From NCBI GenBank assembly GCA_900299345.1, contig OMJM01000071.1, positions 1,985 to 65,984 on the forward strand: a DNA stretch of 64,000 bases. Reading direction: 5' to 3'. The position numbers and the translations under genes were made by a program. The notes under the pieces were generated by a model. The model saw nothing but the letters and a program-made list of their open reading frames with translations, was not told the origin of the DNA and searched no databases. This DNA is from a bacterium (GTDB lineage: Bacteria; Fibrobacterota; Fibrobacteria; UBA11236). Positions 2,937 through 62,982 of this stretch are shown in pieces. Numbering within the stretch: position 1 is the stretch's first letter; each line of letters opens with the position of its first letter.

Positions 2937-4388
2937 ATGAAATCATGGAAATACGCGTTGGCGGCCGCGATTTTGCCCGCTTCGATTTGGTCGGCAACGA
3001 TTAGTGGTATTGTCGGAGCCCCGGCTCCCGGCACCCCGGTTGCGGGAGTGACGGTGTACCTGCGCGATGGCAACAGCACTGGCCCCAAGATCGACTCGAC
3101 CGTCAGCAGTGTCACCGGTGCGTACACGTTCTCGAACGTGGCTACAGGTGCAAAGACCTTGCAGGCTGGAAAAGCCGGCTACAACACGGTTTTTGTCCTG
3201 GTCGGCGTGAATACCGCTGGACAAACCATCACCCAAAATTTGAGCCTCACCATCAATAACAACACCTCGAGTCTCGTCGGTACGGTGCGTAAGGCATCTG
3301 ACTCGACCGTCTTGGCTGGAGTCACGGTGACCTTGTCCGGCAATGCCGAAACGGGTCGCACCAAAGTGACCGACAGCTTGGGCAACTATCGCTTTGACAG
3401 CGTGGGAACGGGAACGGGTTATACCGTCGCCGCCGCGTTGACGGGTTACAACAGCACCAGCGTGGGTGGAATCTCAGCCGCGTGGAATTCTTCCACAACG
3501 GTCGGCACGATGTACCTCACCCGCAATTTGGGCACCTTGTCTGGCACCATCCGCCGCACCGACAGCACCACGGTTCCGATTCAAGGAGCCAAGGTCGTTG
3601 TTTCCATTGCTGGCACCAAGGTGGACAGCACCACGACCGACGTGAATGGCCAGTACACCCTGACCGTGAACGCTGCTGCGTACACTGTTTCGGTGAGCAA
3701 AGCCGGGTACAAGAGCAACATCGGCATGGCAACCAAGGACACCACGGCGACCGTGACGTTTGGCAGCAACACCACGCTGAATGTGAACCTCACTCCGGCA
3801 ATTTCCACGATCACGGGTACGGTTACGCGCGGAACGACGACTCCGGCTAGCGGTGCAAAAGTGGTTTTGGCTCGTCGAATCAACAACCAGGCGGCCACCC
3901 CCTTCACCCGGCTGGATTCCACGACGACAGATGCAAACGGCATCTTCGTGTTCAGCAATTTGATCGCGGCGCAGCCTGCAACGCAAGGCCAGTACCGTTT
4001 GTTCATCACCATGACTCCGCTTGGTAGCACGGTGGATTATCCGAACGGTACGGCACAAACCAACTTAGACACGATTACTGTGGCCGTTGGTGGAACCGCG
4101 ACTCGCAATGTGACTCTGACGAACTGTGCTGTCGGCAGCACCCTTCCCGGCTGCGCTCCTGCTGGCATCCTTCCTTTGTCTTCCAGCAAATCGCAAGACA
4201 TCCGTTTCTCCACGATGGGCGACCGCCTGATTCTGGATATGGGCGTTTCCAACGCCGTCCGCACGGTTTCCATCTTCGGATTGAACGGAACGGTGCAGTA
4301 TCAGGTGAACGTCCCGGCGGGTGAATCCCAGGCTGTTGTGCCTGCGACCCTCTCCCCGGCGAACGGCTACCTGTTCATGGTCAAGTAA
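2937..4388 (+). CDS. Secreted carboxypeptidase-regulatory-like (prealbumin/CnaB-type) repeat protein with a C-terminal sorting-like domain, paralog 1
   Basis: Signal peptide MKSWKYALAAAILPASIWSA (AAGGAG RBS; alternative start 2919); about four 'tisGtV...p.aGa.V.l...TD..G.Y.f' units; ends NGYLFMVK. Confidence 0.8.
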   Translation: MKSWKYALAAAILPASIWSATISGIVGAPAPGTPVAGVTVYLRDGNSTGPKIDSTVSSVTGAYTFSNVATGAKTLQAGKAGYNTVFVLVGVNTAGQTITQNLSLTINNNTSSLVGTVRKASDSTVLAGVTVTLSGNAETGRTKVTDSLGNYRFDSVGTGTGYTVAAALTGYNSTSVGGISAAWNSSTTVGTMYLTRNLGTLSGTIRRTDSTTVPIQGAKVVVSIAGTKVDSTTTDVNGQYTLTVNAAAYTVSVSKAGYKSNIGMATKDTTATVTFGSNTTLNVNLTPAISTITGTVTRGTTTPASGAKVVLARRINNQAATPFTRLDSTTTDANGIFVFSNLIAAQPATQGQYRLFITMTPLGSTVDYPNGTAQTNLDTITVAVGGTATRNVTLTNCAVGSTLPGCAPAGILPLSSSKSQDIRFSTMGDRLILDMGVSNAVRTVSIFGLNGTVQYQVNVPAGESQAVVPATLSPANGYLFMVK

Positions 4389-4409
4389 CCAGCCTTCAAA
4401 GTGCTCTCC

Positions 4410-4443
4410 AAAAAGGCCGGTGGGATTTCCCACCGGCCTTTTT
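4410..4443 (+). terminator. Rho-independent terminator
   Basis: aaaaaGGCCGGTGGGA-tt-TCCCACCGGCCttttt, perfect stem with U-tract. Confidence 0.9.
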
Positions 4444-4544
4444 CATTTTAAAACGAGTTTTCATGCCAGTTTTTCACGGCTAATCCAAGACCGATGAGTT
4501 AGCTTTTGGTAAGCCACAACCCATCCTTAAGGGGAGAATCCATT

Positions 4545-5897
4545 ATGAAAAAGTCTTTGCTCAGTCTCTTGGCTGCTTTGGCATTTTTGCCGCTTGTCGC
4601 TGGTGCGGCAACAATCAGCGGTAACGTCACTACAGGCGGCACCACACCTGTTGTTGGTGCCAAAGTGGTCCTTATTGCGGCTGGAGTTCATGTGGACTCC
4701 GTCATGACGGATAGCGTGGGCCACTACACGTTTGACAGCACCCACGTCGGTGCGACGGGAGCCAAGCAGGTGCAAGCAAGCAAGGCTGGCATGGGAACCG
4801 TCACCAACACGGTCAACATCACCTCTGCCACTCAGGCAGCCACCTCCAACTTCAACCTCGCCGCGGGCGGAAATCTTGCCGGTACGGTGCGTAAAACGTC
4901 CGACAGCACAGTCCTCGCCGGCGCAAAGGTCGTTCTACGGCGCGGCAACACGAGTGTGGACAGTGCCATTACCAACGGCTCAGGCCAATTCACATTCAAT
5001 GATCAAGTTCCCGCGACGAACTACTCGCTTGTGACCAGTGCAGCAACATATTTCACAACGACCACGACCGTATCCATCACCGCCAATGCTTCACTCAGTG
5101 TCACGCTTTATCTGGCATTGACAGTGCCGGCGACCATCACAGGCACTGTGACGAATTCTTCGGGTGGAGCCCCCATTTCAGGCGCACTGGTGCGGCTGCG
5201 CCGTGGTTCCGCCACATCAGCCGTCGTAGACAGTGTGACGACAAACGGTTCGGGTGTTTACAGCTTCAGCGGCGTTGCACCGGGAACCCCCAATGCTTGG
5301 GTCACTGCCAGCGCAAATGGCTTCTTCAGCATCACGAACAACAACCTCACCGTGGGCAACGGAGCCACTGTCACCTCCAACTTCAGTCTTGTCATGCCAG
5401 GCCGTATCACGGGAACCGCACAGGGATACCCCGCGCCTGGCATCTTGGTGAATCTTGCCAATGCGCTGATAGTGCTTCGCCGCGGATCGGACACGGCCGC
5501 CATCAGCGACAGCACGCGTACCAACAGTTCCGGCGTTTATACGTTCAACAACCTCACCCCTGGAACGCCCAACTACTGGGTCACCATCAACAGTAACATT
5601 GGAACAGCCACCAACGCAAATGTGGCTGTGACTGCGGGTGGAACCACGACTTCCAACTTCAGTATTTCTGCCACAGCTATCGCGCGTTTGAGTAAAGAAA
5701 CAGGTGCCTTGAGCTTTTCCAAAGTCGGCAATGAGCTGTACGTCAAAATGAGTGTTTCTTCCTCAGAACGTACGGTCACAGTTTTCGGAATGAGCGGCGG
5801 AATCGCATATCACACCTCGGTTCCAGTGGGAGCATCACAAATCTCAGTTCCGGCGGTGTATGCTCCTGAAAACGGGTATCTCTTCCAAGTGAAATAG
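4545..5897 (+). CDS. Secreted carboxypeptidase-regulatory-like repeat protein, paralog 2
   Basis: GGGGAG RBS; signal peptide MKKSLLSLLAALAFLPLVAGA; four repeat units; ends NGYLFQVK. Confidence 0.8.
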   Translation: MKKSLLSLLAALAFLPLVAGAATISGNVTTGGTTPVVGAKVVLIAAGVHVDSVMTDSVGHYTFDSTHVGATGAKQVQASKAGMGTVTNTVNITSATQAATSNFNLAAGGNLAGTVRKTSDSTVLAGAKVVLRRGNTSVDSAITNGSGQFTFNDQVPATNYSLVTSAATYFTTTTTVSITANASLSVTLYLALTVPATITGTVTNSSGGAPISGALVRLRRGSATSAVVDSVTTNGSGVYSFSGVAPGTPNAWVTASANGFFSITNNNLTVGNGATVTSNFSLVMPGRITGTAQGYPAPGILVNLANALIVLRRGSDTAAISDSTRTNSSGVYTFNNLTPGTPNYWVTINSNIGTATNANVAVTAGGTTTSNFSISATAIARLSKETGALSFSKVGNELYVKMSVSSSERTVTVFGMSGGIAYHTSVPVGASQISVPAVYAPENGYLFQVK

Positions 5898-5914
5898 AAT
5901 CCCTTCGATTTTTC

Positions 5915-5947
5915 AAAAAAGCCGATGGGAATCCCATCGGCTTTTTT
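5915..5947 (+). terminator. Rho-independent terminator
   Basis: aaaaaaGCCGATGGGA-a-TCCCATCGGCtttttt. Confidence 0.9.
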
Positions 5948-5964
5948 GTTTTCATCTCAAAAAA

Positions 5965-6130: not shown

Positions 6131-6131
6131 C

Positions 6132-6165: not shown

Positions 6166-6219
6166 TGTTGAGTCTGATAATAAGTTTTGTATCAAACCAA
6201 CCGGAGAAGGAGAGATCTC

Positions 6220-7035
6220 ATGAAAATTGCCAAATATCTGTTAGCTGCCATCCTCATCCCCGCCTCTTTGTGGGCTGGGACGCTTAGCGGGACTGTAAGC
6301 GCCGCAAGTGGAGGCGCGCCAATTGCCAACGCTTTGGTAGTGCTGAGAACTACTAACTCGGCCACCGGAACTGTGTATGACAGTGTTCGCTCCAATGCTG
6401 CTGGTTTGTATACCTTCTCTGGCCTTTCCGCGGCGACGTACTATGTCACCACCACAGCCACGGGATATGTCACCATTTCATTGAGTTCACATGCGGTCAC
6501 AGCCACCGGCACCACGACCTACAACATCTCGATGACGGCTAGCGTTGGAACAATCACCGGCGTTGCGCGCAGCAATGGCAATCCGATCGTGGGACTTACT
6601 GTGACACTTCGTCGCAGTTCCGCTACCAGTGACCCAGTTGCAACCACAACCACTGATTCCACGGGACGCTACACGTTCAGTAACCAAGCGTCCGGGACCC
6701 CCAACTACTACGTCACCATCTTCAATCCGGCCACGAACCAGACGGTCACGAACGGCAACCTAGCCGTCACAAACGGCGGAACCACTACCTCGAACTTCCT
6801 GCTTAGCGCCACAGCCTTGCAATCGTTTTCCAAAACGTCCTCTTCCATGCGTTGGTCCCGTTCAGGTGATCGCCTGACACTGGATTTGGGCGCATCCAAC
6901 ACAACGCGATTGGTGTCGGTCTACGGCCTGAATGGCACCGTACTCTACAGCGTTTTCGTGAACGCAGGGGAATCCCGCGCAGTGATCCCCGCCGCCTTCG
7001 CTCCGAGCAACGGCTATCTGTTCCAAGTGAAATAA
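6220..7035 (+). CDS. Secreted carboxypeptidase-regulatory-like repeat protein, paralog 3
   Basis: AAGGAG RBS; signal peptide MKIAKYLLAAILIPASLWAG; two repeat units; ends NGYLFQVK. Confidence 0.8.
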   Translation: MKIAKYLLAAILIPASLWAGTLSGTVSAASGGAPIANALVVLRTTNSATGTVYDSVRSNAAGLYTFSGLSAATYYVTTTATGYVTISLSSHAVTATGTTTYNISMTASVGTITGVARSNGNPIVGLTVTLRRSSATSDPVATTTTDSTGRYTFSNQASGTPNYYVTIFNPATNQTVTNGNLAVTNGGTTTSNFLLSATALQSFSKTSSSMRWSRSGDRLTLDLGASNTTRLVSVYGLNGTVLYSVFVNAGESRAVIPAAFAPSNGYLFQVK

Positions 7036-7062
7036 TTGCCAGCTAACAGTGTTTGCTCTTTC

Positions 7063-7319: not shown

Positions 7320-9275
7320 ATGCAACGAATCAGAAAAGCTCCATCTCTCGCAGGCAGTCTCTTCTTTTTGCTGGCGTTATTCCTGCTGACTTCAGCTGGC
7401 GCCACCACGATTTCAGGGACAGTGAGAAACGCCGCCGATAGTACTCCTGTTGTTGGTGCGAAGGTTGTGTTGATCCAGGGACCGACACGCGTTGATTCCG
7501 CCACGACGGACGCGTCGGGGAACTATTCACTGCTTAACGTCACGGGTGGCAACAAGCAACTGCAAACCAGCGCCACAGGTTATCAAACCGCCACGACGAA
7601 TACAACTGTGGATACGACAGTGGCGACGCTTACCGTGAACATCAACCTCACCGTCACGGTGCCTGGAAGCATCAGTGGCCTTGTAAGAAGCGCAGCGGAT
7701 AGCACGACGCCGATCGCCGGGGCGAAGCTCTATCTACGCCGAACCTCCGCCACCAGCGCCATCATCGACAGCGCACTCACGGATTCCACCGGCTTTTACG
7801 CCTTCTCCGATCTCGTGCCTGGAACCCCCAACTACTATCTCGCGGTCACCGCAACCGGATACGTCAATGGCACAAGCAATAATATTGCGGTGGGTAACGG
7901 AGCTTCCGTGACTCGCAACTTCTACTTGAATTCGCCTGGCAGCATCAGCGGCCTTGTAAGAAACGCCGCGGATAGCACGACACCGATTGCGGGAGCGAAG
8001 GTTTATCTGCGCCGAACCTCCGCGACCAGCACCATCATCGACAGTATCACCACAGATTCCACGGGCGCGTACGCTTTCTCCAACCTGGCTCCAGGAACCC
8101 CCAACTACTACATCACTGCCAGTGCATCGGGCTTCTTAAGCATCACCAATGGCAACGTCGCACTTCCCAACGGAGGGGCGATAATTTCCAACTTCTATCT
8201 GCAAACGCTCGTTCCCGGTAGCATCTCAGGCACCGTGAGAAGCGCGGCGGACAGCACAACACCCATCGCCGGAGCGAAAGTCTATCTGCGCCGAACCTCC
8301 GCCACCAGCGCTATCATCGACAGCACCACAACGGATGCACTCGGGGATTACCTGTTCGACAGCCTGACGCCAGGAACGCCAAACTACTGGATCACGGCCA
8401 GCGCTGCAGGATTCCAAAGCGCGACGAACGCCAACGTGGCCATCGCCAATGGCGAGGGCGTGACTTCCAATCTGTATCTGGTGGTGACCGTTCCCGGGAC
8501 TATCAGCGGAACAGTGAGAAGTGCTGTAGACAGCATCACTCCCATTGTCGGCGCCAAGGTCTATCTCCGCCGCACCTCCGCCACCAGTGCCATCATTGAC
8601 AGCGCCACCACTGATTCCACCGGTGCTTATGCGCTCAGCAACCTAGCACCGGGAACCCCCAATTATTATCTGGCGGTCACCGCAGCGGGATACGTCAACG
8701 GTGCAAGCAATAACATCGCGATAGGCAACGGCGCCACCGTCACACGTAATTTCTACCTCGCCGTGGCCGTTCCGGGCAGCATCACTGGAATCGTGAGACG
8801 CGCCACTGACAGCACCGTCATTGCCGGAGCCAAGATTTATCTCCGCCGCTCTTCCGCGACTAGTGCCATCATCGACAGTGCCACTACCGATTCCGCCGGT
8901 GTCTACACCTTCAGCAACGTGGCTTCCGGAACACCGAATTACTGGATTACCATCAGTGTAACCGGCTACCTTGATAGCACAATTACGAATGTCGCCGTCG
9001 GCAACGGCGCCACCGTTACCCGCAACGTGGTGATGACCTTGGTCAGTAGTGCGCTGAAACAGGCCGCTACACATTCAGCAAACAATTTCCGCATCGTCCG
9101 GGCTGGGAACCTGCTGTGGGTGAACATCGAGGCATCGGGAACACCGAGACGCTTGAAGATTTACGACATGACCGGCAGCGTGCGTCACAGCGTATCGATA
9201 TCCGCCGGAGAAAATCGGGTTTCTGTGCCGGCGGCGTTCTCTCCTTCCAATGGTTTTATCCTGCAAGTGAAGTAA
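7320..9275 (+). CDS. Secreted carboxypeptidase-regulatory-like repeat protein, paralog 4 (six units)
   Basis: GGAGG RBS; signal peptide; five near-identical 91-93 aa repeats plus a divergent first unit; ends NGFILQVK. Confidence 0.8.
   Translation: MQRIRKAPSLAGSLFFLLALFLLTSAGATTISGTVRNAADSTPVVGAKVVLIQGPTRVDSATTDASGNYSLLNVTGGNKQLQTSATGYQTATTNTTVDTTVATLTVNINLTVTVPGSISGLVRSAADSTTPIAGAKLYLRRTSATSAIIDSALTDSTGFYAFSDLVPGTPNYYLAVTATGYVNGTSNNIAVGNGASVTRNFYLNSPGSISGLVRNAADSTTPIAGAKVYLRRTSATSTIIDSITTDSTGAYAFSNLAPGTPNYYITASASGFLSITNGNVALPNGGAIISNFYLQTLVPGSISGTVRSAADSTTPIAGAKVYLRRTSATSAIIDSTTTDALGDYLFDSLTPGTPNYWITASAAGFQSATNANVAIANGEGVTSNLYLVVTVPGTISGTVRSAVDSITPIVGAKVYLRRTSATSAIIDSATTDSTGAYALSNLAPGTPNYYLAVTAAGYVNGASNNIAIGNGATVTRNFYLAVAVPGSITGIVRRATDSTVIAGAKIYLRRSSATSAIIDSATTDSAGVYTFSNVASGTPNYWITISVTGYLDSTITNVAVGNGATVTRNVVMTLVSSALKQAATHSANNFRIVRAGNLLWVNIEASGTPRRLKIYDMTGSVRHSVSISAGENRVSVPAAFSPSNGFILQVK
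7662..9041 (+). repeat. Five tandem intragenic repeats of 273-279 bp
   Basis: Units start at 7662, 7935, 8214, 8493 and 8772 (PGsIsG.VR.A.DS...GAK.YLRR.SATS.IIDS). Confidence 0.9.
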
Positions 9276-10039: not shown

Positions 10040-10079
10040 TATGCTGTTGCCAATCTACATTGTTGCCTCCGGAATCCAG

Positions 10080-12500
10080 ATGCTGTCAAAAATCGGGAGT
10101 TGCGCAATGCTGGCCATTGGGTGGAGTTCGGCCGCCGGGGTCATTCATTTGAATGCAACGTTGACCGATTCCGCTTTTTCCGTTTCGGGAAAATACCAGA
10201 TCGAAGTATTGGAAACGGGCGACACCTTGCGAATCGAACCCGGTCAAAAATTTTCATTCGCACTTCCTCCCGATTCACTGTGGACCTTGTGCGCCAAAAA
10301 AGGCGACACGGCGGGCGCCTACGAGAAATGTTTTGAAATTCGACGTCCCGGGAAAGATTCGGTGATTGAAGCGAAGCTTGAAGGAACGGGCGCATTTTTG
10401 GCCCAACCTGAAGTCGATCTCGCCACAGCGGCAACCGTGGCCTCCGCAAACGTTACGACCGAGGAAGGTCCCGCAGGAGATACTGAAACAGAATCCGTCC
10501 GCTTGCAGAAGGTAATGTTGCGCGCCCAACGCACACCCAAGCGCGCTCTGGGTCGACAGACCGTTTCCGCCAAGCTGATCAAGCGCATGCCCGGCCTGGC
10601 TGAAGCGGACGTGATCCGTTCGATCCAAGGCCTGCCCGGCGTGGTGTCAAGTTCTGATTTCTCCACCAAGATCTACGTGCGCGGCGGCGGCAGCGATCAG
10701 AACCTCATCCTCTTCGACAATGCACCGGTCTATTCTCCGGTGCATTTCTTTGGATTGTTCTCCACGTTTCTCGTCAACGGCATTCAAGATGTGACCTTTT
10801 ACAAGAGCGGATTCCCCGCAGAATATGGAAACCGGCTTTCCTCGGTGCTCGACGTGCGATCACGGCGTGGCGGGCGGGATAGTTCGAATTCCCTGTTCAA
10901 AGGTTCGTCCGTACAGATCAGCACTGTGGCCACCTCGGCTCACACTGAAGGCCATCAAGGACCGGTGCGCTGGCTGTGGGCGGGGCGCACGACGTACATC
11001 AAACAGGTGGTGGACTTCCTTAGGGAGCGCGGCGCCATTGATTTGGTACTCGACTATTACTTCTACGACCTTCAGGGCAACATGGCCTATGCGTTGGGTC
11101 CCGATGCCGAAGCCTCCTTCTCGGTGTATCAAGGGCGTGACCGCCTGAATTTCGATCCTTTCCTTGTGGAATGGGGGAACACCGTCATTCCCATAAATTT
11201 CAAGTGGAAACACTCGGATGGCTGGACATATCGTACCACTCTTGCCTACAGCCTGATGAGTCAGACTTTCGGCCTCACCAGCATCTTCGAGTTCTATAAC
11301 CGCATTGCCACATGGCAGGCCAAGCAGAGCGCCGAATACTCAGGCCTGGAGGGGCACCGTTTGACCTTTGGCGAAGAGGCCAGCGGGATGCAAACCATTT
11401 TCCGGAACAGCCAGTATGTGGCCCGGCTGACGTTCCGTGATCAGACGGATTTTCTCCTGGTCAGCCTCTTCATGCAGGACAAATGGTCTCCCGGAAAATG
11501 GGAGATCACGCCGGGTCTCCGACTGAACTATGCTTCGACGCTGGAAGCTCCTCAGGCGGAACCACGTCTGTCTGTGAAGTATTCCCTGCCCGCCAAACAG
11601 ACCTTGGACTTCCACGCCGGATACTATCTCCAGTACATCAACTCCATCTTGTTCGGGGATCAGGAAAGCATCAATGAGTTTTACTACCCGGCCAAGAAGG
11701 TGAAGTATCGCACCGTCGAACCCACGGCATCGGTGCTATTGGCTGCGGGATATTCAAAGGAACAGATCTTCAATCAATTCGACTTCTCGCTCGAAGGATA
11801 TTATAAGTCGCTGTATCACCTGCTGATCTTCGCCCCCAACGAAAAACCCGATTCCATCCTGTTCGATACGCAAAGGGATTTGGGCGATCTTTTCGACGAG
11901 GCGGAAGGGTATTCCTTGGGATACGAAGCCTCGTTGCGCCGTCCCGTGGGAACGTTGTTCGGAGGATTGAGCTACTCGCACGGTTATTCGGTGATTCGTG
12001 AAAACGTTTTCCGGGAACCCTATTACCCGAAGTGGCATCAACCACACAGTTTCAAGGCGGATCTGGCTGTCAACTGGAAAGGTGCGGACGGTATCTGGGC
12101 ATCGAAGAAAAAAGGAGGGTATTTCCGATCCTCTACGCAGGTGAAATACGCCACGGGCCTTCCCTACACCGAATATTCCGGATACGCTCCATCCCACCTC
12201 ATCGATCAAAACGATGGCCGCATGGCTGGAGGTCCAAATCCGGAATTCGAGGGTAACCTGAATGTGATGCGCGCGGGCTACAACGAGGCGGTCGTTCCGC
12301 CCTATTTCCGCTGGGACGTAAAACCCGTGGATTGGGGGCGGGAAGGAAAATGGAATTTTTCCTTTACCATTCTCAATGTCACCAATCACAAGAATGTGTT
12401 CTTCTATACGTATGATCGGCAGCAAAATCCTCCGGAACGAATCACCATCACTCAATTTCCCTTCTTCCCTTTTCTGTTGAGCTATGAGTACACGTTCTAG
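10080..12500 (+). CDS. TonB-dependent receptor (plug plus barrel)
   Basis: Plug motifs 'DVIRSIQGLPGV', 'VRGGGSDQNLILFDNAPVYSPVHFFGLFS'; C-terminal F (SYEYTF); start chosen at 10080. Confidence 0.85.
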   Translation: MLSKIGSCAMLAIGWSSAAGVIHLNATLTDSAFSVSGKYQIEVLETGDTLRIEPGQKFSFALPPDSLWTLCAKKGDTAGAYEKCFEIRRPGKDSVIEAKLEGTGAFLAQPEVDLATAATVASANVTTEEGPAGDTETESVRLQKVMLRAQRTPKRALGRQTVSAKLIKRMPGLAEADVIRSIQGLPGVVSSSDFSTKIYVRGGGSDQNLILFDNAPVYSPVHFFGLFSTFLVNGIQDVTFYKSGFPAEYGNRLSSVLDVRSRRGGRDSSNSLFKGSSVQISTVATSAHTEGHQGPVRWLWAGRTTYIKQVVDFLRERGAIDLVLDYYFYDLQGNMAYALGPDAEASFSVYQGRDRLNFDPFLVEWGNTVIPINFKWKHSDGWTYRTTLAYSLMSQTFGLTSIFEFYNRIATWQAKQSAEYSGLEGHRLTFGEEASGMQTIFRNSQYVARLTFRDQTDFLLVSLFMQDKWSPGKWEITPGLRLNYASTLEAPQAEPRLSVKYSLPAKQTLDFHAGYYLQYINSILFGDQESINEFYYPAKKVKYRTVEPTASVLLAAGYSKEQIFNQFDFSLEGYYKSLYHLLIFAPNEKPDSILFDTQRDLGDLFDEAEGYSLGYEASLRRPVGTLFGGLSYSHGYSVIRENVFREPYYPKWHQPHSFKADLAVNWKGADGIWASKKKGGYFRSSTQVKYATGLPYTEYSGYAPSHLIDQNDGRMAGGPNPEFEGNLNVMRAGYNEAVVPPYFRWDVKPVDWGREGKWNFSFTILNVTNHKNVFFYTYDRQQNPPERITITQFPFFPFLLSYEYTF

Positions 12501-43556: not shown

Positions 43557-43920
43557 CCTGCGGCGCGGCGCGGCCGGATTCGGCTTCGCCGCCATTCTGT
43601 TCGCCTGCGCGGGAACCATTCCTGAACCCGGCGACAATCACCTCCATTACGCCGCAGCGCATGGCTATTCCACGTCTTTGGAAAACCTGCGCGAAGGGCG
43701 CGCCTTGATGTTGCGCAAGTGCGACGGCTGCCATTCCTTTCCCCGCATCAAACGGTATGCCCCGGAAAAATGGCCCGCAATCATGGATTCCATGCGCATC
43801 GAAGCCAAGCTTTCTTCCCATCAGGACACCCTGATTCGAAATTATCTGATGATCGCCTCGGGAAATTTGAGGGACTCGCTGGCGGCGGTTACAGCGGCTA
43901 AGCACAGCACACCTCAATAG
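43513..43920 (+). CDS. Monoheme cytochrome c lipoprotein
   Basis: Lipobox LFAC, CDGCH at 43720-43734, downstream W..IM..M axial ligand candidate; start uncertain (43507/43513). Confidence 0.75.
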   Translation: MKKWKPAFISRFISNLRRGAAGFGFAAILFACAGTIPEPGDNHLHYAAAHGYSTSLENLREGRALMLRKCDGCHSFPRIKRYAPEKWPAIMDSMRIEAKLSSHQDTLIRNYLMIASGNLRDSLAAVTAAKHSTPQ

Positions 43921-49855: not shown

Positions 49856-50463
49856 TGTCGCGCATCCTGATCGGAGTCACGGGCAATGTTGCCTCCGGCA
49901 AGAGCGTGGTGGCCCGCCATTTTCAGGAAAAGGGCTGTGCCCTCGTGGATGCGGACAAGGTCGCCCACGAGCTGTATGCAACGAACACCGGGCTGCTGCG
50001 TCAGCTCGCGTCCGAATTCGGCTCGGAGATCATGAACCCCGACGGGACCTTGAATCGCAAGCGTCTTGGCCATGAAGTCTTCGGAGACGCCGAGGCGCTG
50101 ATGGCGCTGGATCGCATCGTGCACCCGCATCTGCTGGTGGCCTTGCGCGAACGCATTTTCACGGCACGACGGGTAATGAACCGGGCCGTGCTCGACGCCG
50201 CACTGATCGTGGAATGGGGCGCGCGCCGGGAAATGGACTGCCTGGTATTGGTGACGGCGCCGGAAGAAGTACGGTTGCGGCGGTTGATGGAACGCGACGG
50301 GTTGAGCATGGACGAGGCGTCGCGACGGATTCGCAGCCAGATCCCCGAGGACGACAAGCGACCCTTCGCGGATTTCGAGATCACGAACACGGGAACACCG
50401 GAACAATTGCTGGAAAAGGCGGACGCGGTGTGGCAGGCCATCGAGGCGAAGTTCGCGGAATGA
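49855..50463 (+). CDS. coaE: Dephospho-CoA kinase
   Basis: 'IGVTGNVASGKS', 'DAD', 'LNRKRL', 'HP', 'RIRSQ'; TGATG overlap with polA. Confidence 0.93.
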   Translation: MSRILIGVTGNVASGKSVVARHFQEKGCALVDADKVAHELYATNTGLLRQLASEFGSEIMNPDGTLNRKRLGHEVFGDAEALMALDRIVHPHLLVALRERIFTARRVMNRAVLDAALIVEWGARREMDCLVLVTAPEEVRLRRLMERDGLSMDEASRRIRSQIPEDDKRPFADFEITNTGTPEQLLEKADAVWQAIEAKFAE

Positions 50464-51185
50464 ACCGGAGGCTCTTGTGGATGGGTTTGGCGGGAATTCT
50501 CCTCGGCATCTCCATCGGCTTCTGGCAAAAACACTCACCGCGAGATCCGCTGGCAAAGCTTTTTCCCGAAGAGAAACTTCGCGGCCGGGTGGAAGGCGCT
50601 CGGGTTTCCATCGTCTCCGATCTTTCCTCGAAATCCATCGGTGGCGGAGACGTGTTGTTGGCGCGCGTGATTCTTCCTTTTCACGTGGATGCAAACCGAC
50701 TCGACCCCACCAGTCTCGGCATCCTGCAGGGTGTTTTACGTCAACAACCGAATACAGACTGGATCTGCATCTTCATCGCCGAAGATAGCGCCCTGGCCGC
50801 CACGTCGAATTGGGTTTCAATTGCGGAATATCATCGCGGAGAAATCACCTTGCGCGGCGGTCATCCCTCCCCTGTTCAGATCGATTCTTTGCAATCGCTC
50901 GGCATTCCGGCACATCGCCCCGACTCCGCGGAAGCCGCGTTGGTGAACGAAACCTTCGTCGCGCATCCAGGCCTGCGGGCCGCGCGCTGGAAACTTTCAC
51001 AAACTTTGCGCGGCGCCACTTCCGCAAGTTTGAATCAGGAAGAATTCTTCAAGTTGGAACTCGACACCCGTACACTCTTCGACGTCGAAAAAAAACATGG
51101 GATGACGGGAGAACAACTCCGCCAGAAAATTTTGGGCGTTGTTCGGTATTATTGGTTGAGGATGGGCGAAGCGCGGGAACCGTGA
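50460..51185 (+). CDS. Hypothetical membrane-anchored protein
   Basis: ATGA overlap with coaE; single N-terminal hydrophobic segment. Confidence 0.65.
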   Translation: MNRRLLWMGLAGILLGISIGFWQKHSPRDPLAKLFPEEKLRGRVEGARVSIVSDLSSKSIGGGDVLLARVILPFHVDANRLDPTSLGILQGVLRQQPNTDWICIFIAEDSALAATSNWVSIAEYHRGEITLRGGHPSPVQIDSLQSLGIPAHRPDSAEAALVNETFVAHPGLRAARWKLSQTLRGATSASLNQEEFFKLELDTRTLFDVEKKHGMTGEQLRQKILGVVRYYWLRMGEAREP

Positions 51186-51614
51186 CTAAAACTTCGCCTT
51201 GACCGAGTCGAAGTAAGCCTGATCCTCAGGCTCCAGCAAACCGTGGAGCGTCGCCGAGGAAATTTCGACACGAACTCCGGCCGTGTCCCCTGTCGCCATC
51301 TTGGAACGAAGCCGATTGACGATCTCCTTTTCCCGCTCTCCCATGGATTCCATCGAATCAAGACGGGCATAAATGAGACTGTCATGCGCCGTGGTCAGGT
51401 ACTGCGCGTTCTTCAGTTCCTCATACACCTTGGACGCCTCGCGGAAGTCACCCTTTTGAAACAGGGAATCAGCCTCATTGAACCGTTTCATGGAAGAACT
51501 TTTCTGATACTGGTAATAGAAGGTGAACCCGCCGACCAGCAGCAGCACACAGATGCCGACGACCCAATCCCAGAACGTCGAGGGCTTCTTCTCTTCTTTT
51601 TCCAGAAAACTCAT
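51186..51614 (-). CDS. Hypothetical single-TM protein with a TPR-like helical domain
   Basis: TM at about residues 15-33; 'ADSLFQKGDFREASKVYE'. Confidence 0.6.
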   Translation of the reverse strand: MSFLEKEEKKPSTFWDWVVGICVLLLVGGFTFYYQYQKSSSMKRFNEADSLFQKGDFREASKVYEELKNAQYLTTAHDSLIYARLDSMESMGEREKEIVNRLRSKMATGDTAGVRVEISSATLHGLLEPEDQAYFDSVKAKF

Positions 51615-52900: not shown

Positions 52901-54358
52901 CTATCCCCCATTTTTGCCGTTCAAGCTATGAAAATAGTCCGGCAGGGTCCATCCCACCGCCTTGAAAAGCTGAGCCACGGTAATGTTGTATTCCAGCACG
53001 GACTTGTAGTAATCGCGTTGCGCGGTGAGGGATTGTTTGAAGGGTGAAATCAACTCCCTGCTGCCGCCTGAGGCATCCAGATCGTACTTCATGGCCTCGC
53101 CCTTGAGCCACGCCTTGGCGGCCCGCATGGATTTCTCCGCTGCCTCCACGTCTGCACGCGATTTGAGCAACCGGACATAGGCGTCTTCCACCTTGAGTAA
53201 CAACCCGCGCGCCGCATACACTTCGGTCCGTTCCAGTTGACGAAGCTCCAGTCGTTCCTTGCGGTATTTCTGATATCGCGACCAAAAATTGAGTTGAAGT
53301 TTGACACCGAGTCCGCCCACGGCGGTGATCTCATTCAAGGGATCGCGTGCAAAAGGATTGCTTCCGCCGGACAGACGATCCGAGGACCACGCCTTGGTGT
53401 ACTTGAAGCTGCCGAAGAGAAAAATGTCCGGACCGATTTCACCCTGCGCCACCTTGAGCAATTCCTGCCGCGCGGCGAGACCATTCTTCAAACGCTTGAG
53501 ATCGGGATGATCGCGCAGCAGCGACAGCTTGAGCGAATCAAGCGAAGGAATCACCTCGGGCCGCACGGAAAGCACCGAATCCGACAGCGGCATCTCCAAG
53601 CTGTCCGGCCAGGCCAGCACAAAACGCATTCCCAACGCGGTGCGCGACACCCCCAATTGGGCCTCGTTCACGCTTTGATCCAAGCTGAAGCGGCCCGCCT
53701 TGAGTTGGAGCAGATCCGTCTGCGAAACGCCGTCCTCCCCCCTGTCCAGTTGTTCAGTCATTTTTTTCTGTGCCCTGTCGAGATCATGTCGGGCCGAATC
53801 CAGAATATCATGCATCGTCAATGCCAGTAGGCGCTGATAATAAAGCGTCTGCGCTTCTTCTGAGACGTCCAATTGCTCCTTCTTGAATTCCGCCGAGGTG
53901 ACATCGATTTGCCGTTCCGAAGCCCGACGCCCGGCGCGGTAGCGAGCCACGTTCAACGGCTGTGCAATGTCTGCTTCGAAACCGAAGAACGGCCCCCACT
54001 CTCCAAAGTTGAATTCTTTCTGGGTCTGCTTGACCGTATCTCCACCCGTTGTAACCAACGAGTAATCCGGGACTAGATGAAGACCTGGAGCCGGGCCCAT
54101 GCCCATGGAGACTTCGAACTTGGGAAGAATCGCACCGAGGTTTACGTCTCTGAGTTTTTCTTTGGCTTTATCGACTTCCAGTTCTTTTTCGAACAAAATC
54201 GGGTCGCGGGCTAGGGCCAAGCTCTCGGCGATGGCGCAGGTCAAGGGAGCCGTGACGGGTGGAACAGGGGTTTCAGCGGTTGCAAGGGAAAACGGCAGGG
54301 CGACACCCAGACCCAAGACCCCCGCCCGAAAGCCGGTGAACAAAGCGCGGAATTGCAT
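52901..54358 (-). CDS. TolC family outer-membrane protein
   Basis: Signal peptide; two OEP-like halves with long helices and short beta-hairpins. Confidence 0.8.
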   Translation of the reverse strand: MQFRALFTGFRAGVLGLGVALPFSLATAETPVPPVTAPLTCAIAESLALARDPILFEKELEVDKAKEKLRDVNLGAILPKFEVSMGMGPAPGLHLVPDYSLVTTGGDTVKQTQKEFNFGEWGPFFGFEADIAQPLNVARYRAGRRASERQIDVTSAEFKKEQLDVSEEAQTLYYQRLLALTMHDILDSARHDLDRAQKKMTEQLDRGEDGVSQTDLLQLKAGRFSLDQSVNEAQLGVSRTALGMRFVLAWPDSLEMPLSDSVLSVRPEVIPSLDSLKLSLLRDHPDLKRLKNGLAARQELLKVAQGEIGPDIFLFGSFKYTKAWSSDRLSGGSNPFARDPLNEITAVGGLGVKLQLNFWSRYQKYRKERLELRQLERTEVYAARGLLLKVEDAYVRLLKSRADVEAAEKSMRAAKAWLKGEAMKYDLDASGGSRELISPFKQSLTAQRDYYKSVLEYNITVAQLFKAVGWTLPDYFHSLNGKNGG

Positions 54359-57532: not shown

Positions 57533-59134
57533 ATGCGTCTTCCCCTTCTTCTCTTTCTCTGCGCCGCCGCGCCGGTTCCCGCCATTCTGCTGGAGGGATT
57601 GCCCGGGGAGGAGATCACCACTTCGCCTCAAGTCCTGCACACAGCCGCACGTGCAGCACCGGATTCCGGACACGGAGCCAACTGGCTTGCACCCGGCGTT
57701 GAAGATCAACTTTCCCGCGACCGCACCTTGATCACCTTGGGCAAAGGCGCGCTATTCGTACCAGCCTTCAGCGAACCGCGTCGCGAACCGGAGATCGCGG
57801 TGTATCACAAGGATTCTCTCGTGACCACAGGGCAGACCGGGCAACGCATCCTGCTGGACTCCGGGTTATACGAAGTGCGGTTGGGTTCGGGAATTTCGGG
57901 GCGCCGCATCCGGATTCCAGCGCACATCGAAGAGGGGCACACATTCGTGCTGCCACCTTCATGGGGTGGATTGCTAGTGGAGACATTGACGGATTCCGGC
58001 GAATACTTCGATGGGCAATACGATTTGATCCGCATGGAGAATTGGACCAGCTATGGCCGCGGGAACGGGTTCAAGGAAGAACGATTGCAGGATATCAAGA
58101 CGTGGATTCTGCCTCCGGGTCTTTATCGAATTTCCAAAACCGGCGAAGGGTACAACTCGCTGAGGAACTACATCACGCTACAGATCAATCCCGGTGAATT
58201 GCATTCTGTAGAGCTGATCTTCGACAAAACCTCGGGAGGGAACCTCATCGCAGGCGGCATCAAGTCACTGACCACCCACACACGCGCAGGCCGTCACTGG
58301 ACCTACGGGTTGCGGGCCGGCGGCAACGTGGATCTCACGCGTAACGTGGATGAGACCGACGTGCGCAAGCAAAGCGCCTTGTTTTCAACGGACCTGCGGA
58401 CACGGTTGCGCTACGATCATCCGCTCTATTTCGGAGTCAACGAGTTGTTCCTGCAGAACAGTTTTCTCAAAGAGGAGAGCAAACCGCTCAGCATTTCCTC
58501 CGATTATCTCCAGCTGCGCTCCACTTGGGTGCGCAGACTCAACGCGTGGCTGGGGCCTTATGTACGGGGACAGGTTTCAACACACGTGTTTCCCAGTGAA
58601 GTGAACGTTGACACTGCCTTTCGCATCCGTTCCTACGATTCTTCCGGCATTGCGAAACGGGACACTTTGGATACCTTGCTGGGTTCCTTCCGTACCCAGC
58701 CTTCCGGTTTCCCTCTCTTTCTTGCCGAAGGTGTGGGCGTGAACCTCGAATGGTTCTCGCGATACGAACTGACACTTTCCACACAGGTAGGCCTTGCGGC
58801 ACGACAGCAAATCTCTTCCGGGGATTATCTGGCGCGCACCTCCAATTCCTTCGAACGTGCCACCTCGAGTTCCACGTTGGGGGCGGAAGGCATCCTGATC
58901 GGCACCTTGCGACTCTCGACCCAGTTTACTTTGGATCTGCGGGCCGAAATCTTCGCCGAAAACGGTCGCCCCCGTGACCTATTGTTGGAAAATCTGGAGG
59001 CGGATTTCCGGTTTTTCCTCACCAGAAACGTGGAACTGGGTTATCTCTTTCAAATGCGCGAAAGCCAGGATCAGGTGGCGAACCGTTTTCCGCGACAGCA
59101 CAATATTTCCCTGCGTTTGAGCTTCAATTACTGA
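57533..59134 (+). CDS. Hypothetical outer-membrane beta-barrel with N-terminal beta-sandwich (PEGA-like) domains
   Basis: Signal peptide; C-terminal half has amphipathic strands ending SLRLSFNY; 3 nt after the PqiC-like stop. Confidence 0.6.
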   Translation: MRLPLLLFLCAAAPVPAILLEGLPGEEITTSPQVLHTAARAAPDSGHGANWLAPGVEDQLSRDRTLITLGKGALFVPAFSEPRREPEIAVYHKDSLVTTGQTGQRILLDSGLYEVRLGSGISGRRIRIPAHIEEGHTFVLPPSWGGLLVETLTDSGEYFDGQYDLIRMENWTSYGRGNGFKEERLQDIKTWILPPGLYRISKTGEGYNSLRNYITLQINPGELHSVELIFDKTSGGNLIAGGIKSLTTHTRAGRHWTYGLRAGGNVDLTRNVDETDVRKQSALFSTDLRTRLRYDHPLYFGVNELFLQNSFLKEESKPLSISSDYLQLRSTWVRRLNAWLGPYVRGQVSTHVFPSEVNVDTAFRIRSYDSSGIAKRDTLDTLLGSFRTQPSGFPLFLAEGVGVNLEWFSRYELTLSTQVGLAARQQISSGDYLARTSNSFERATSSSTLGAEGILIGTLRLSTQFTLDLRAEIFAENGRPRDLLLENLEADFRFFLTRNVELGYLFQMRESQDQVANRFPRQHNISLRLSFNY

Positions 59135-59235
59135 CCCGGATTTTGGGCCGTTTGCACAAGGCGCCCCTGTCAAATCGGGGGTATATTTTAGTGCCGGGTC
59201 ATTTAGGAATTGTCTTCTGCGAAAGGTTTGTTTTC

Positions 59236-61128
59236 ATGTCCATGCGTTCCTTTTTTTCGAAAATATCCGCGGGTCTTGCGCTCTGCGCTCCACTGCTCCT
59301 TCAAGCCGCCACCCCGCTAACGACTGTTCATCCCAGCTGGACGCTTTATAACCTTCGCCCCTCCCAGACTTCGAGCTTCCGTCCAATGGTCGGTGGCATG
59401 GATTTTCTTTCAGATGGCCGTCTGGTCATCGGTCATTGGGGGGGGACGCGTACGGCATGCTGCCCTTCCAACACCAACTTCGGCGGACGGCAGTACACCG
59501 GCAAGATTTACATCCTGAGCGGAGTCACTGGCACCACACCCAGTGTGGTGATCGACAGTTCCTTCGCCACCGGACTCGAAGACGTCATGGGCCTCACGGT
59601 GATACGGGATACGATTTACGTCTCGGGCGGCAACAACATCATCCGCCTGATCGACTCCGACCACAATGGCGTCGCCGATCGCAAGGACACTTTGTTCGAA
59701 CTCCCTGGAACCCCGCAGATTAGTTCCACCAGCACCACCGCGCCAGGCCCCGGCCCTTACAACGACTCCCTGCATCCGACCAAGGGACGCAGCGAATGGC
59801 TGTACGGATTACTCGCGCGCAATGACACTTTCTTCGTCAATCCATCTTCGATGTACAACGCCAACAACATCCAGCAGGTGAACCCCTATCGGGGAACCTT
59901 TCTCGCCGTCACGCGCGGGAATGGAGTGCGGGGGAATTATCAAATTCGTTCCATGGGATTGCGCCACCCCACAGGTCTGACCTTCGGACCCGAAGGCACG
60001 ATCTGGACCTGCGAGACACAAGGCCATTGGGTCCCGACCGACAAATTGATCCAGTTGAAGACCGGTGCGTTCTATGGCTTCCATCACACCCCCGCAGAAT
60101 CGTGGGACAACATGACAGAAACACCTGCCGCGGTATTTTTGCCGCAGGAAGGTAGTGGTGGCAGCGGTGCCAAGGACGCCACCGGCATTTTCGCCGATTC
60201 TCCGGGCCAGCCGTTCTATCTCACCGATGGGCCTTATGCCGGCCAATTCCTGATGGGCGACGTAAGCTGGGGTGGCATACAACGCTTCTTCGTGGAAAAA
60301 GTCGGCAATGATTATCAAGGCGCAGGTTTTGTATTCACCGGTGGACTGGAATCCGGCGTATATCGCATGGCGCAAGGCCCTGATGGCATGCTGTATCTGG
60401 GCATGATCGGCACGTCCAATGACTGGAGCTGGAACGGTCAGTACTACGGATTGCAAAAGATCAAGTACAATGGCACACCCACCTTTGAAATGCTGGCGGT
60501 GCGATCACGCGCTGCGGGCATGGAAATCGAATTCACAAAACCCGTGGACACGCTTACCGCCAGGATCGCCAGCAATTACACCGTGCAGACCTACTACTAC
60601 ACACCGACATCGTCATATGGCGGCACCAAGGCGGGCACCACTCCGCTCACAGTCACCCAGGGTACGATTCAATTTTCTCCCGATCTCAAGAGCGTGTATC
60701 TCCCACTTTCCGGTCTGGTGGCGCGCACCGGCATTCTGCATCGCATCGTGGAGATTACTCTCGCCAATGGGTTGAAATCCTCCACGGGGGATACTTCGTG
60801 GACCAAAAAAGCCTACTACTCCCTGAACGCCATCTCCCCTAGTGCGCCGTTCTCCACAACCACGGCCATCGATCCGAAGATCGTGCGGGCGGACATGCTG
60901 AAACAATTGCGCTGCAAATTGGCGTCGGACAACCTCGTAGTGAAGCTTCCGTTCGCGGGCGCCTACGATCTCCGCCTGCTCGACGCGCGTGGCGCAGTTC
61001 TCACATCCACTCAGGGCCGCGGCGCCGAAGAAAAAAGCCTGCCCCTGCGCAACGCGCACGGAAAATTCGTTGTGGTTGAAGCTTATGGAGATGGCATGAA
61101 TCTGCGCCGTACGGTGGCACTGCCTTAG
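59236..61128 (+). CDS. Secreted beta-propeller protein (glucose/sorbosone-dehydrogenase-like) with an Ig-like domain and a T9SS-like CTD
   Basis: Signal peptide; 'GLRHPTGL', 'TQGHW', 'GPDGMLY' blade motifs; C-terminal 'LLDARG'. Confidence 0.6.
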   Translation: MSMRSFFSKISAGLALCAPLLLQAATPLTTVHPSWTLYNLRPSQTSSFRPMVGGMDFLSDGRLVIGHWGGTRTACCPSNTNFGGRQYTGKIYILSGVTGTTPSVVIDSSFATGLEDVMGLTVIRDTIYVSGGNNIIRLIDSDHNGVADRKDTLFELPGTPQISSTSTTAPGPGPYNDSLHPTKGRSEWLYGLLARNDTFFVNPSSMYNANNIQQVNPYRGTFLAVTRGNGVRGNYQIRSMGLRHPTGLTFGPEGTIWTCETQGHWVPTDKLIQLKTGAFYGFHHTPAESWDNMTETPAAVFLPQEGSGGSGAKDATGIFADSPGQPFYLTDGPYAGQFLMGDVSWGGIQRFFVEKVGNDYQGAGFVFTGGLESGVYRMAQGPDGMLYLGMIGTSNDWSWNGQYYGLQKIKYNGTPTFEMLAVRSRAAGMEIEFTKPVDTLTARIASNYTVQTYYYTPTSSYGGTKAGTTPLTVTQGTIQFSPDLKSVYLPLSGLVARTGILHRIVEITLANGLKSSTGDTSWTKKAYYSLNAISPSAPFSTTTAIDPKIVRADMLKQLRCKLASDNLVVKLPFAGAYDLRLLDARGAVLTSTQGRGAEEKSLPLRNAHGKFVVVEAYGDGMNLRRTVALP

Positions 61129-61176
61129 AACGCTGAAATCGTCAACGCAGCTTGTGGAAATACGGAGACAACTGAC

Positions 61177-62982
61177 ATGAAACTTTCTTCACGAATCCTG
61201 CTTCTGATTCCTTGTCTGGCAGTGTCGTCTTTCGCGGACTTCACCTATCCCGGCTGTTCCGACATGACGGGCAACGATTTCACCATCTCCACCCTTGTCA
61301 GTAATTCCACCGACACCACGATCAAGGAGCCATCCAAGATGGCTTTGTTCACCAACGCGCAGGGAAACGTGGATGTTTATTTCGTGCAACGCTATGGCAA
61401 GGTGCGCAAGTACGATGGCACGGCCAAAACCCTCTCCCTGGTTGGGAATTTCAACTTCGGCAGTGGCAGCAGCATGACCGACACAACGCAGATCTACAAC
61501 GGGTCCGCCAGCTCCAGCGAAGGGCTGCAGGGTATCGCGCTGGACCCTAACTTCAACACCAACCATTGGATGTACCTGTACTTCGTGATGAAAAGTGTCT
61601 GGCGCATCACCCGCTACACGGTGAACAACAATACGCTCGACATGAACAGTGGAAAAACAATCCTCCGTTTCACGCACACCTCCTTCGGACAACACGCCGG
61701 CTCCGCACTGCGCTTCGATCCGGACGGCAATCTGTGGATCACGGTGGCAGACGACGGTGGCACGAACTGGCCTGCCGATCAAACCGTCCCCTATCAGGCT
61801 GCAAACAGCAACAAGTATTTCGGAAAGATCCTCCGTATCAAACCGCGGCCCATTGCGGATGCAACTCCCGCCCCGGCCCCGGGATTGGGTTCCACCTATG
61901 ATGTTCCCGCCGGAAATCTACGCCAGAGTTTTTTCAGCATTGGCGGGCCCGCAGGTCAGGATACCAACAAAATCCTTCCCGAAATCTATGTGATGGGAAA
62001 CCGCAATCCCTATTCCATCGCCCTCGACACGGTGCGCAAAGGCATGGCATGGGGCGACGTGGGCCCGGACAGTTACGGCGGAACGCAACCCGATTCCCTG
62101 TGGACCGAGGAACTTAACTTCACCACCCAGCCCGGGTTCTTCGGCTGGCCGCTCTGGGCCGGCAAAAAAACACCTATGCCCACCGCCGGCTGGTCGGGCT
62201 ATACGGCACAACCGCCGTCTTCCAACGGTGGCGTCGGCGGCACCATATCCGCGCCAGTGAATAACCGTACCGACAACACAGGTATCACCAATCTTCCACC
62301 CGCGCAACCCGCCATCATCAACTATGTGAAGAACTGCGCCATCACTGGGCCGATCTACTACTACAACGCCGCCAGCACCTCCACGGTCAAATTCCCCCCG
62401 CACTTGAGCGGCAAGTGGTTCGTGGGCGATTTCAACGCCTCGTGGATCAACGCGGTGGAACTCAACCCGGCGGGCACGGCGGTCTTGAGCATCAAGAAGA
62501 TGTTTTCGGTCTCCGCCGGTGGAAGCCCCACTTTGCTGCCGCCCGCCACTGCCGGAAATTCGTTGAAGCAAATCGCCACCACGGCGATGAACTCGTCGAA
62601 CTCCCTGCTCGACATGCAGATGGGGTCCGACGGTTCGTTGTACATCATGAACTATTCGGGATACCGGACCTTCGACACGAAGTCAGGGCTGATGCGGATC
62701 ACCTACAACGGGTCCTGCCTCCCGGCGACGCCGATCCTGCCGCAGGAGCAGGCGATTCGCGATGCACGGAAGTTGCTGGAAGTAAAAGGTCTGGATGTTT
62801 CCATCCTGACTTCGGGGAATCACACTTTGGAAGTCCGGGACATCACCGGTAAACAACTGGCATCCCGCAAAGGCCAGGGTTTCACGCACTATACGTTCAA
62901 CGAACTGCGCAACCCCGGTGTGTATCTGCTGTACTTCTCGTCGCCTGAAGGACGGCGGGTGCAGAAGATTATGCGGCAGTAG
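61177..62982 (+). CDS. Secreted PQQ-dependent sugar dehydrogenase-like (GSDH) protein with a T9SS-like CTD
   Basis: 'EGLQGIALDPNF', 'H.GSALRFDPDGNLWITVAD', 'GKILRI', 'GNRNPY', 'WGDVGPD', 'EELN'; CTD 'RDITGK...PGVY...QKI'. Confidence 0.75.
   Translation: MKLSSRILLLIPCLAVSSFADFTYPGCSDMTGNDFTISTLVSNSTDTTIKEPSKMALFTNAQGNVDVYFVQRYGKVRKYDGTAKTLSLVGNFNFGSGSSMTDTTQIYNGSASSSEGLQGIALDPNFNTNHWMYLYFVMKSVWRITRYTVNNNTLDMNSGKTILRFTHTSFGQHAGSALRFDPDGNLWITVADDGGTNWPADQTVPYQAANSNKYFGKILRIKPRPIADATPAPAPGLGSTYDVPAGNLRQSFFSIGGPAGQDTNKILPEIYVMGNRNPYSIALDTVRKGMAWGDVGPDSYGGTQPDSLWTEELNFTTQPGFFGWPLWAGKKTPMPTAGWSGYTAQPPSSNGGVGGTISAPVNNRTDNTGITNLPPAQPAIINYVKNCAITGPIYYYNAASTSTVKFPPHLSGKWFVGDFNASWINAVELNPAGTAVLSIKKMFSVSAGGSPTLLPPATAGNSLKQIATTAMNSSNSLLDMQMGSDGSLYIMNYSGYRTFDTKSGLMRITYNGSCLPATPILPQEQAIRDARKLLEVKGLDVSILTSGNHTLEVRDITGKQLASRKGQGFTHYTFNELRNPGVYLLYFSSPEGRRVQKIMRQ

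Follow-up and report, generated by a model that had tools for sequence, protein, structure and literature searches.

The 64,000-nucleotide stretch of DNA analysed here (contig OMJM01000071.1 of assembly GCA_900299345.1, positions 1,985 to 65,984; hereafter, the window) belongs to a bacterium of the lineage Fibrobacterota; Fibrobacteria; UBA11236, and the exported proteins that it encodes are rich in the tripeptide D-(S/T)-(A/I/L/V/M/T), the acceptor sequon of the general protein O-glycosylation system of Bacteroidota. Across the whole genome, the enrichment of the sequon in the exported proteome is real, strong and specific, and it is probable that this proteome has been shaped by sequon-directed general O-glycosylation of the Bacteroidota type. 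From the footprint, we infer both the presence of glycans on the sites and the identity of the enzymes that add them. In Bacteroidota, where general protein O-glycosylation was reportedly described by Fletcher in 2009 and by Coyne in 2013, a large part of the envelope proteome is a substrate of the system, which is reportedly essential for viability; to our knowledge, its transferase, core flippase and ligase have remained unknown since 2009. In the Fibrobacterota bacterium, the Ser or Thr of D-(S/T)-(L/V/T/I/A/S/M) would be glycosylated on the periplasmic side after Sec export, so that selection would gather and preserve such sites in lipoproteins and in proteins of the periplasm, the outer membrane and the secretome, while leaving cytoplasmic proteins unaffected; the likeliest route would involve polyprenyl-phosphate-sugar synthases and GT-C transferases encoded elsewhere in the genome.

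Genes were called over the entire 2.24-Mb assembly with a self-trained codon model (1962 genes, coding density 92%), and their products were sorted into compartments by a home-made heuristic that relies on hydropathy and cleavage site rather than on SignalP, yielding 516 exported (430 with a signal peptidase I site and 86 with a lipobox), 833 cytoplasmic, 280 polytopic membrane and 266 ambiguous proteins. Expected sequon counts were obtained from 200 shuffles of each protein or from its composition. The 516 mature exported proteins contain 1571 D-[ST]-[AILVMT] sequons against 590 expected, a 2.66-fold excess (standard deviation 25, z = 39.6; the highest of the 200 shuffles gave 665), compared with 645 against 591 (1.10-fold) in the cytoplasmic set; the lipobox proteins reach 3.4-fold (295 against 86). 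Sequons accommodate 14.2% of the Asp residues of exported proteins versus 4.5% of those of cytoplasmic proteins. Among the exported proteins of at least 100 amino acids, 75% exceed their own expectation and 81% carry at least one sequon, versus 49% of the cytoplasmic proteins. The enrichment proposed in the preliminary description of the window thus extends to the complete genome, and the hand counts given there (for paralogs 2 and 4 of a tandem array, a TonB-dependent receptor, a lipoprotein, a TPR protein, a 142-aa protein and PurB) all proved exact on recount.

Exported proteins are richer in Ser and Thr, one of the counted proteins, paralog 4, is internally repeated, and the classifier is home-made, all of which would favour an artefact of composition, repeats, or gene or signal-peptide calling. 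Such an artefact is exceedingly improbable given that the expectation was set protein by protein, that ten control motifs of the same or permuted composition (E, N, Q, G or K at position 1; the reversed motif; D-hydrophobic-S/T; S/T-D-hydrophobic; D-S/T-non-hydrophobic) all gave ratios of 0.83–1.29 in the exported proteins, and that the same code returns 1.0–1.1-fold for Escherichia coli and Latescibacterota. Against a first-order Markov expectation, the exported excess is still 1.58-fold. An all-against-all BLAST comparison of the exported proteins yielded 389 clusters, including 334 singletons; the excess is 2.64-fold in the singletons and 2.69-fold with one representative per cluster, such that the earlier caution about internal duplication holds for paralog 4 but not for the genome-wide signal. 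When the heuristic was tested on E. coli, about one-fifth of its ‘exported’ assignments were wrong, and miscalls of this kind dilute the signal rather than create it.

Each of the three motif positions was then scanned across all 20 residues in the exported proteins. At position 1, Asp is the sole enriched residue (2.66-fold), with Glu at 0.84 and all others at or below 1.08; at position 2, only Ser (2.98) and Thr (2.31) are enriched, the remaining residues reaching at most 1.17. The ranking at position 3 is L (3.45), V (2.70), T (2.61), I (2.40), A (2.30), S (1.80), M (1.42) and G (1.24), and the charged residues (D, E and K) are depleted along with P, F and W (all below 0.7). In the glycoproteomes of Bacteroidota, the first position is nearly always Asp, Ser has a slight edge over Thr at the second, and the third position is mostly L, I, V, T, A, S or M (PMC12871550). 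The compartment and residue specificity of the footprint is that of the Bacteroidota general O-glycosylation sequon. The motif could instead have been selected for a cause other than glycosylation, for example, a different modification of Ser/Thr, a role as a recognition site for a periplasmic chaperone or protease, or an Asx-turn or N-cap in the beta-rich surface proteins of this clade; the surroundings of the motif are indeed poor in acidic residues, and many sequons of the tandem paralogs described below lie at a fixed loop of a beta-sandwich. We nevertheless regard such a cause as unlikely because the specificity at three positions equals that of the experimentally mapped Bacteroidota sequon, the signal spans unrelated families including the singletons, and a generic structural preference should also show in the exported proteins of E. 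coli or Latescibacterota, which it does not.

Conservation of the sites was assessed in reciprocal-best orthologs of this genome (G000) and of G002, a genome of the same genus whose exported proteins share 58% identity with those of G000. Exported sequons were kept at the aligned position in 67 of 102 cases (66%), compared with 78 of 229 (34%) for control tripeptides taken from these proteins (Fisher p = 1e-7), and because of this difference, the exported sites appear to be under purifying selection; in cytoplasmic orthologs, sequons and control tripeptides did not differ (45% versus 43%). Against the more distant same-order genome G013, 35% of the exported sequons and 14% of the controls were kept (p = 0.008). 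In SecDF, 6 of the 8 sequons lie within the periplasmic P1 and P4 domains. This preferential conservation argues against the footprint being a relic of ancestral glycosylation that is inactive in the reduced 2.2-Mb genome, as do the magnitude of the enrichment, which is among the highest measured, and the intactness of all the candidate genes described below, with their catalytic residues conserved. A relic would be compatible with the lack of a Wzy_C ligase/transferase in this genome and with the situation in G013, which has lost the TMEM260-like gene while its footprint is still 2.05-fold, such that the footprint and one candidate gene are separable; on balance, we find a relic quite improbable.

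The bacterium belongs to Fibrobacterota rather than to Bacteroidota: for a conserved gene, the closest relatives come from metagenome-assembled genomes (MAGs) labelled Fibrobacteres, Fibrobacterota or Fibrobacteria (56–59% identity), and Fibrobacter spp. show about 40% identity for the same gene. The same pipeline, applied to samples of 180–400 kb from other genomes, gave the following ratios of observed to expected sequons.

This genome (G000): exported 2.66, cytoplasmic 1.10
Same-genus genome (G002): exported 2.78, cytoplasmic 1.27
Same-order genome (G013): exported 2.05, cytoplasmic 1.08
F. succinogenes MAG: exported 1.91, cytoplasmic 1.32
Marinimicrobia (G023, Neomarinimicrobiota MAG, C4:100001-300000): exported 2.03, cytoplasmic 1.23
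Zixibacteria (G026 MAG, C6:500001-700000): exported 1.85, cytoplasmic 1.46
Ignavibacteria: exported 1.67, cytoplasmic 0.94
Bacteroidota MAG: exported 1.53, cytoplasmic 1.09
Latescibacterota (G021): exported 1.00, cytoplasmic 1.01
E. coli K-12: exported 1.12, cytoplasmic 0.77

Asp is the top-enriched first residue of the 20 in every positive genome, but not in E. coli or Latescibacterota; the Poisson p-values are 6e-9 in Marinimicrobia and 1e-6 in Zixibacteria (small samples from single genomes, with 35–40 exported proteins each). These data hint at a footprint that reaches other phyla of the Fibrobacterota–Chlorobiota–Bacteroidota (FCB) group. A smaller sampling, of flanks of about 20 kb around 80 FCB loci, provided just 1–32 exported proteins per phylum and was underpowered. 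According to a 2025 review, enrichment of the motif in non-cytoplasmic proteins is mainly a feature of Bacteroidota, with the sister phylum Fibrobacterota being similar; the review proposes taking the sequon analysis on to Fibrobacterota (PMC12871550). More recent reviews in the literature searched yielded nothing further. The suggestion in the preliminary description that a related O-glycosylation system operates in this lineage is supported by the compartment and residue specificity, the conservation of the sites and the Fibrobacterota affiliation; it is correct but was anticipated in print at the phylum level (PMC12871550). Because the review had already noted the enrichment in Fibrobacterota, this genome is a predicted addition to a known glycosylation system.

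Within the window, the exported proteins contain 77 sequons versus about 21 expected (hand sum), or 39 versus about 14 without the four paralogs of a tandem array, and the cytoplasmic proteins contain 15 versus about 14.5. The array (2919-9275) encodes CarboxypepD_reg (prealbumin-like) repeat proteins.

2919..4388, + strand: paralog 1, with a signal peptide, CarboxypepD_reg repeats (PF13620, E=2e-32) and a C-terminal sorting-type domain; 9 sequons among 16 Asp (about 2.1 expected)
4506..5897, + strand: paralog 2, CarboxypepD_reg repeat protein; 8 sequons among 9 Asp (about 1.2 expected)
6187..7035, + strand: paralog 3, CarboxypepD_reg repeat protein; 2 sequons among 6 Asp (about 0.8 expected)
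7320..9275, + strand: paralog 4, with six CarboxypepD_reg repeats (PF13620, E=2e-75); 19 sequons among 24 Asp (about 3.0 expected)

Most repeats of paralog 4 contain three sequons in the pattern aaDSTtp ... iiDSAttDSTgaY. When the 16 repeat units of the four paralogs are aligned, DS[ATVI] is located five residues ahead of a T(D/N)xxGxY turn in 14 of them; this fixed site, the loop position mentioned above, is present also in the diverged paralogs 1–3, and paralog 4 has two more recurrent sites. The shared sorting-type domain, that is, the C-terminal 99 or more residues, is sequon-free in all four proteins. With a sequon density of up to 1 per 33 residues, the four paralogs are predicted to rank with the most densely glycosylated proteins at the cell surface. 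Elsewhere in the window, the relevant proteins are the following.

10041..12500, + strand: TonB-dependent-receptor-like protein with a Plug domain; 6 sequons (about 2.0 expected), five of these within the first 110 residues
12484..14007, + strand: lipoprotein with the lipobox ...LAGC; 9 sequons (about 1.4 expected)
18045..19166, + strand: exported TPR protein; sequons DST and DSV at residues 30 and 35 (IDSTVTDSVA)
22136..23575, - strand: PurB, the cytoplasmic comparator; 2 sequons in 479 aa (about 1.2 expected)
33476..34342, + strand: RmlA-like glucose-1-phosphate nucleotidyltransferase, cytoplasmic (PF00483, E=3e-70); 0 sequons
43507..43920, + strand: small exported protein of 137 aa; 3 sequons (about 0.2 expected)
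50430..51185, + strand: exported protein of 251 aa; 3 sequons (about 0.5 expected)
51186..51614, - strand: 142-aa protein with an N-terminal membrane anchor; 5 sequons (about 0.4 expected)
52901..54358, - strand: TolC-like outer-membrane efflux protein; 5 sequons (about 1.3 expected)
57533..62982, + strand: three exported proteins, the last two being GSDH-like propellers; 4 sequons each (about 1.4 to 2.0 expected)

The RmlA-like enzyme may be a source of dTDP-rhamnose for a glycan. The genes of the rhamnose pathway are dispersed, with the RmlA-like gene in the window and RmlD in an operon on another contig, described below. For a glycan with the Man-Rha-GlcA core of the Bacteroidota system, these two genes would be indirect evidence at most. 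The largest excess of any protein of the window classed as cytoplasmic belongs to a 1012-aa DUF349 repeat protein (44017-47055), with 6 sequons versus about 2.1 expected, which may reflect a repeat effect or a wrongly judged location.

The transferase, core-glycan flippase and ligase of Bacteroidota O-glycosylation are undiscovered (PMC12871550), and for this reason, homology of the machinery cannot be established. A profile search for Wzy_C (PF04932) identified no genuine member in this genome, the lone match being sub-threshold (25 bits) and located inside an RND efflux pump, and there were zero matches in three same-genus genomes; a PglL/Wzy_C-type oligosaccharyltransferase is not involved. 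The genome encodes five Wzx-type flippases within glycosyltransferase clusters other than the metG locus discussed below; a cluster on contig C42 (asnB-dsbA-wzx-GT4-GT9) and the wzx neighbourhood on C70 showed nothing specific.

A screen of large polytopic proteins identified a 938-aa TMEM260-like GT-C protein (G000:C44:22366-25182), which matches PF11028 (CAZy family GT117) with 143.6 bits (cut-off 24.2, E=7e-42) and the structure of human TMEM260 (9rql chain A) with E=6e-21. It consists of a GT-C membrane domain, a soluble middle domain and C-terminal TPRs, and its invariant D34, H49 and D549 (in an NGDNDTFP motif) align with the essential D52, H67 and D441 of human TMEM260. The gene is located in a co-directional locus with the order ribBA, ribH, nusB, GT117, GT4, a TIGR00374 flippase-like gene, an ArnC/PgfS-like GT2 (two C-terminal transmembrane helices; E=4e-56 and 2e-42), RmlD, a 250-aa GT2, a 538-aa GT2 and accA. 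The complete order is retained in a same-genus genome, the core nusB-GT117-GT2-GT2-GT2 in 14 of 14 Fibrobacter loci, and portions of it in Zixibacteria, Calditrichota and KSB1. GT117 is present in 148 of 151 Fibrobacterota genomes (51 of 52 genera; the genomes without it are G013, G073 and G143) and, among 14 control genomes, in Bacteroides thetaiotaomicron alone; long-form homologs occur in Zixibacteria, Ignavibacteria, Calditrichota, KSB1, Marinimicrobia, Latescibacterota, Gemmatimonadota and Bacteroidota. In the literature searched, we found no paper that pairs TMEM260 with a Bacteroid* term, and DUF2723 appeared in one paper alone, on human TMEM260. A separate contig (C19:1-5308) carries three short TMEM260-like GT-C paralogs in tandem (about 620 aa each), in which any C-terminal TPR-like tail is short; same-genus genomes have between 0 and about 7 copies of this short form. 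The same three proteins account for the matches to PMT_2 (PF13231), a family with no match in B. thetaiotaomicron.

The second GT-C protein is a 793-aa YfhO-like protein (G000:C87:11300-13681), whose gene neighbours encode Wzx, GT4, an acyltransferase and a sugar C-methyltransferase, and whose gene was detected in 26 of the 27 Fibrobacterota genera sampled. In one Zixibacteria and one Marinimicrobia genome, the YfhO-like gene directly adjoins a homolog of the ArnC/PgfS-like GT2; in a Bacteroidota MAG, it lies within about 15 kb of homologs of the ArnC/PgfS-like and DPM1/AglJ-like GT2s. A single 14-kb cluster of Zixibacteria (G026:C5:50001-64000) comprises GT117, GT4, GT2, ArnC/PgfS-like GT2, YfhO-like, a homolog of the 538-aa GT2 and accA, linking the two GT-C families that are apart in G000. 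The candidate genes contain no internal stops, and their catalytic residues are conserved.

Neither GT-C family tracks the footprint perfectly because of two genomes. In the complete G013 genome (1.6 Mb, 32% GC), no GT117 homolog was found, yet the footprint persists with conserved positions; a 1152-aa Big_2 repeat protein takes the place of the GT117-GT4-flippase segment (G013:C1:888001-908000) in a locus that retains the ArnC/PgfS-like GT2, the 250-aa GT2 and accA, and the YfhO-like gene is retained with 43% identity. Were GT117 indispensable, G013 would be expected to have lost the footprint, which it did not, so either GT117 is not strictly required or the loss is recent. The Latescibacterota genome G021 shows the opposite pattern, with GT117, YfhO-like and GT2 homologs present and the footprint absent (1.00-fold). 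The YfhO-like gene is the better fit to the positive genomes (10 of 10), whereas GT117 has the more specific taxonomic distribution and a relative that is a proven protein O-mannosyltransferase. Both conserved GT-C enzymes are candidates for the sequon transferase. Tentatively, we suggest that the transferase could be GT117 and/or the YfhO-like enzyme fed by polyprenyl-phosphate sugars, as opposed to an en-bloc oligosaccharyltransferase, and that the D-S/T-x system might extend beyond Bacteroidota and Fibrobacterota; the partners of the GT-C enzyme would be the ArnC/PgfS-like GT2, a DPM1/AglJ-like GT2 and the flippase-like protein.

Several points weigh against sequon-directed O-glycosylation as the explanation of the footprint, in addition to the elusive homology of the machinery. 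Compartments were assigned by a heuristic; in principle, a footprint could persist after the loss of the system that made it; and no glycoproteome of any Fibrobacterota was found in the literature searched. Furthermore, the Bacteroides-type locus of fragilis glycosylation (LFG; metG, then wzx, variable glycosyltransferases and, at the end, two conserved ones), for which the preliminary description had recommended a search, was not found as such at metG (C22:23662-25773), which is followed by a gene for a soluble 484-aa protein.

What is new here, beyond the phylum-level expectation, is the exclusion of a Wzy_C-type transferase, the conserved set of GT-C and polyprenyl-phosphate-sugar genes as candidates, and the hint of other FCB phyla. 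A second phylum with an equal or stronger footprint, small genomes and a different gene order provides a comparative handle on the transferase: the 2.2-Mb genome rules out a Wzy_C-type enzyme, and the membrane glycosyltransferase candidates are narrowed to two GT-C families. For Fibrobacterota, the prediction is that surface adhesin-like and fibre-degrading proteins are heavily glycosylated, which matters for heterologous expression of the enzymes.

Among the known systems, PglL/PilO/PglS of Neisseria, Acinetobacter and Burkholderia likewise mediate periplasmic, lipid-carrier-dependent O-glycosylation of many exported proteins but require a Wzy_C transferase, which is missing from this genome in genuine form, and have no strict short sequon. 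The GT117 operon encodes counterparts of the three-component systems (GtrB/ArnC-type GT2, flippase and GT-C) exemplified by CsbB-YfhO of Bacillus subtilis and streptococcal Pgf/PgfS, whose targets are teichoic acids or else disordered regions that are rich in Ser/Thr and lack a defined sequon. Human TMEM260 (GT117) is the protein O-mannosyltransferase of the endoplasmic reticulum for IPT domains (PMC10214176; bioRxiv 10.64898/2026.03.17.711096; PDB 9rql), which recognizes an extended sequon-bearing peptide and uses polyprenyl-phosphate-mannose as the donor (PMC10214176; bioRxiv 10.64898/2026.03.17.711096). The bacterial GT117 shares with it the PF11028 domain, the GT-C plus TPR architecture and the Asp/His/Asp residues; unlike the human enzyme, it is a bacterial protein with predicted periplasmic action, and the IPT signature that serves as the human sequon is long and rich in Pro/Gly, in contrast to D-S/T-x. 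The closest match is the system of Bacteroidota (B. fragilis LFG; Elizabethkingia/Flavobacterium, Tannerella and Porphyromonas; PMC12871550), from which the present case differs in the Fibrobacterota host, in the lack of the metG-wzx-glycosyltransferase order and in being predicted from sequence. The two have in common the absence of a recognisable PglL-type transferase, the presence of rhamnose-pathway genes and a motif that is limited to non-cytoplasmic proteins and occurs in most exported ones. The sequon itself is the same, with an obligatory Asp, Ser over Thr and the same ranking at the +1 position, and its enrichment is 2.7-fold here versus 1.5-fold in the single Bacteroidota MAG sampled with the same pipeline.

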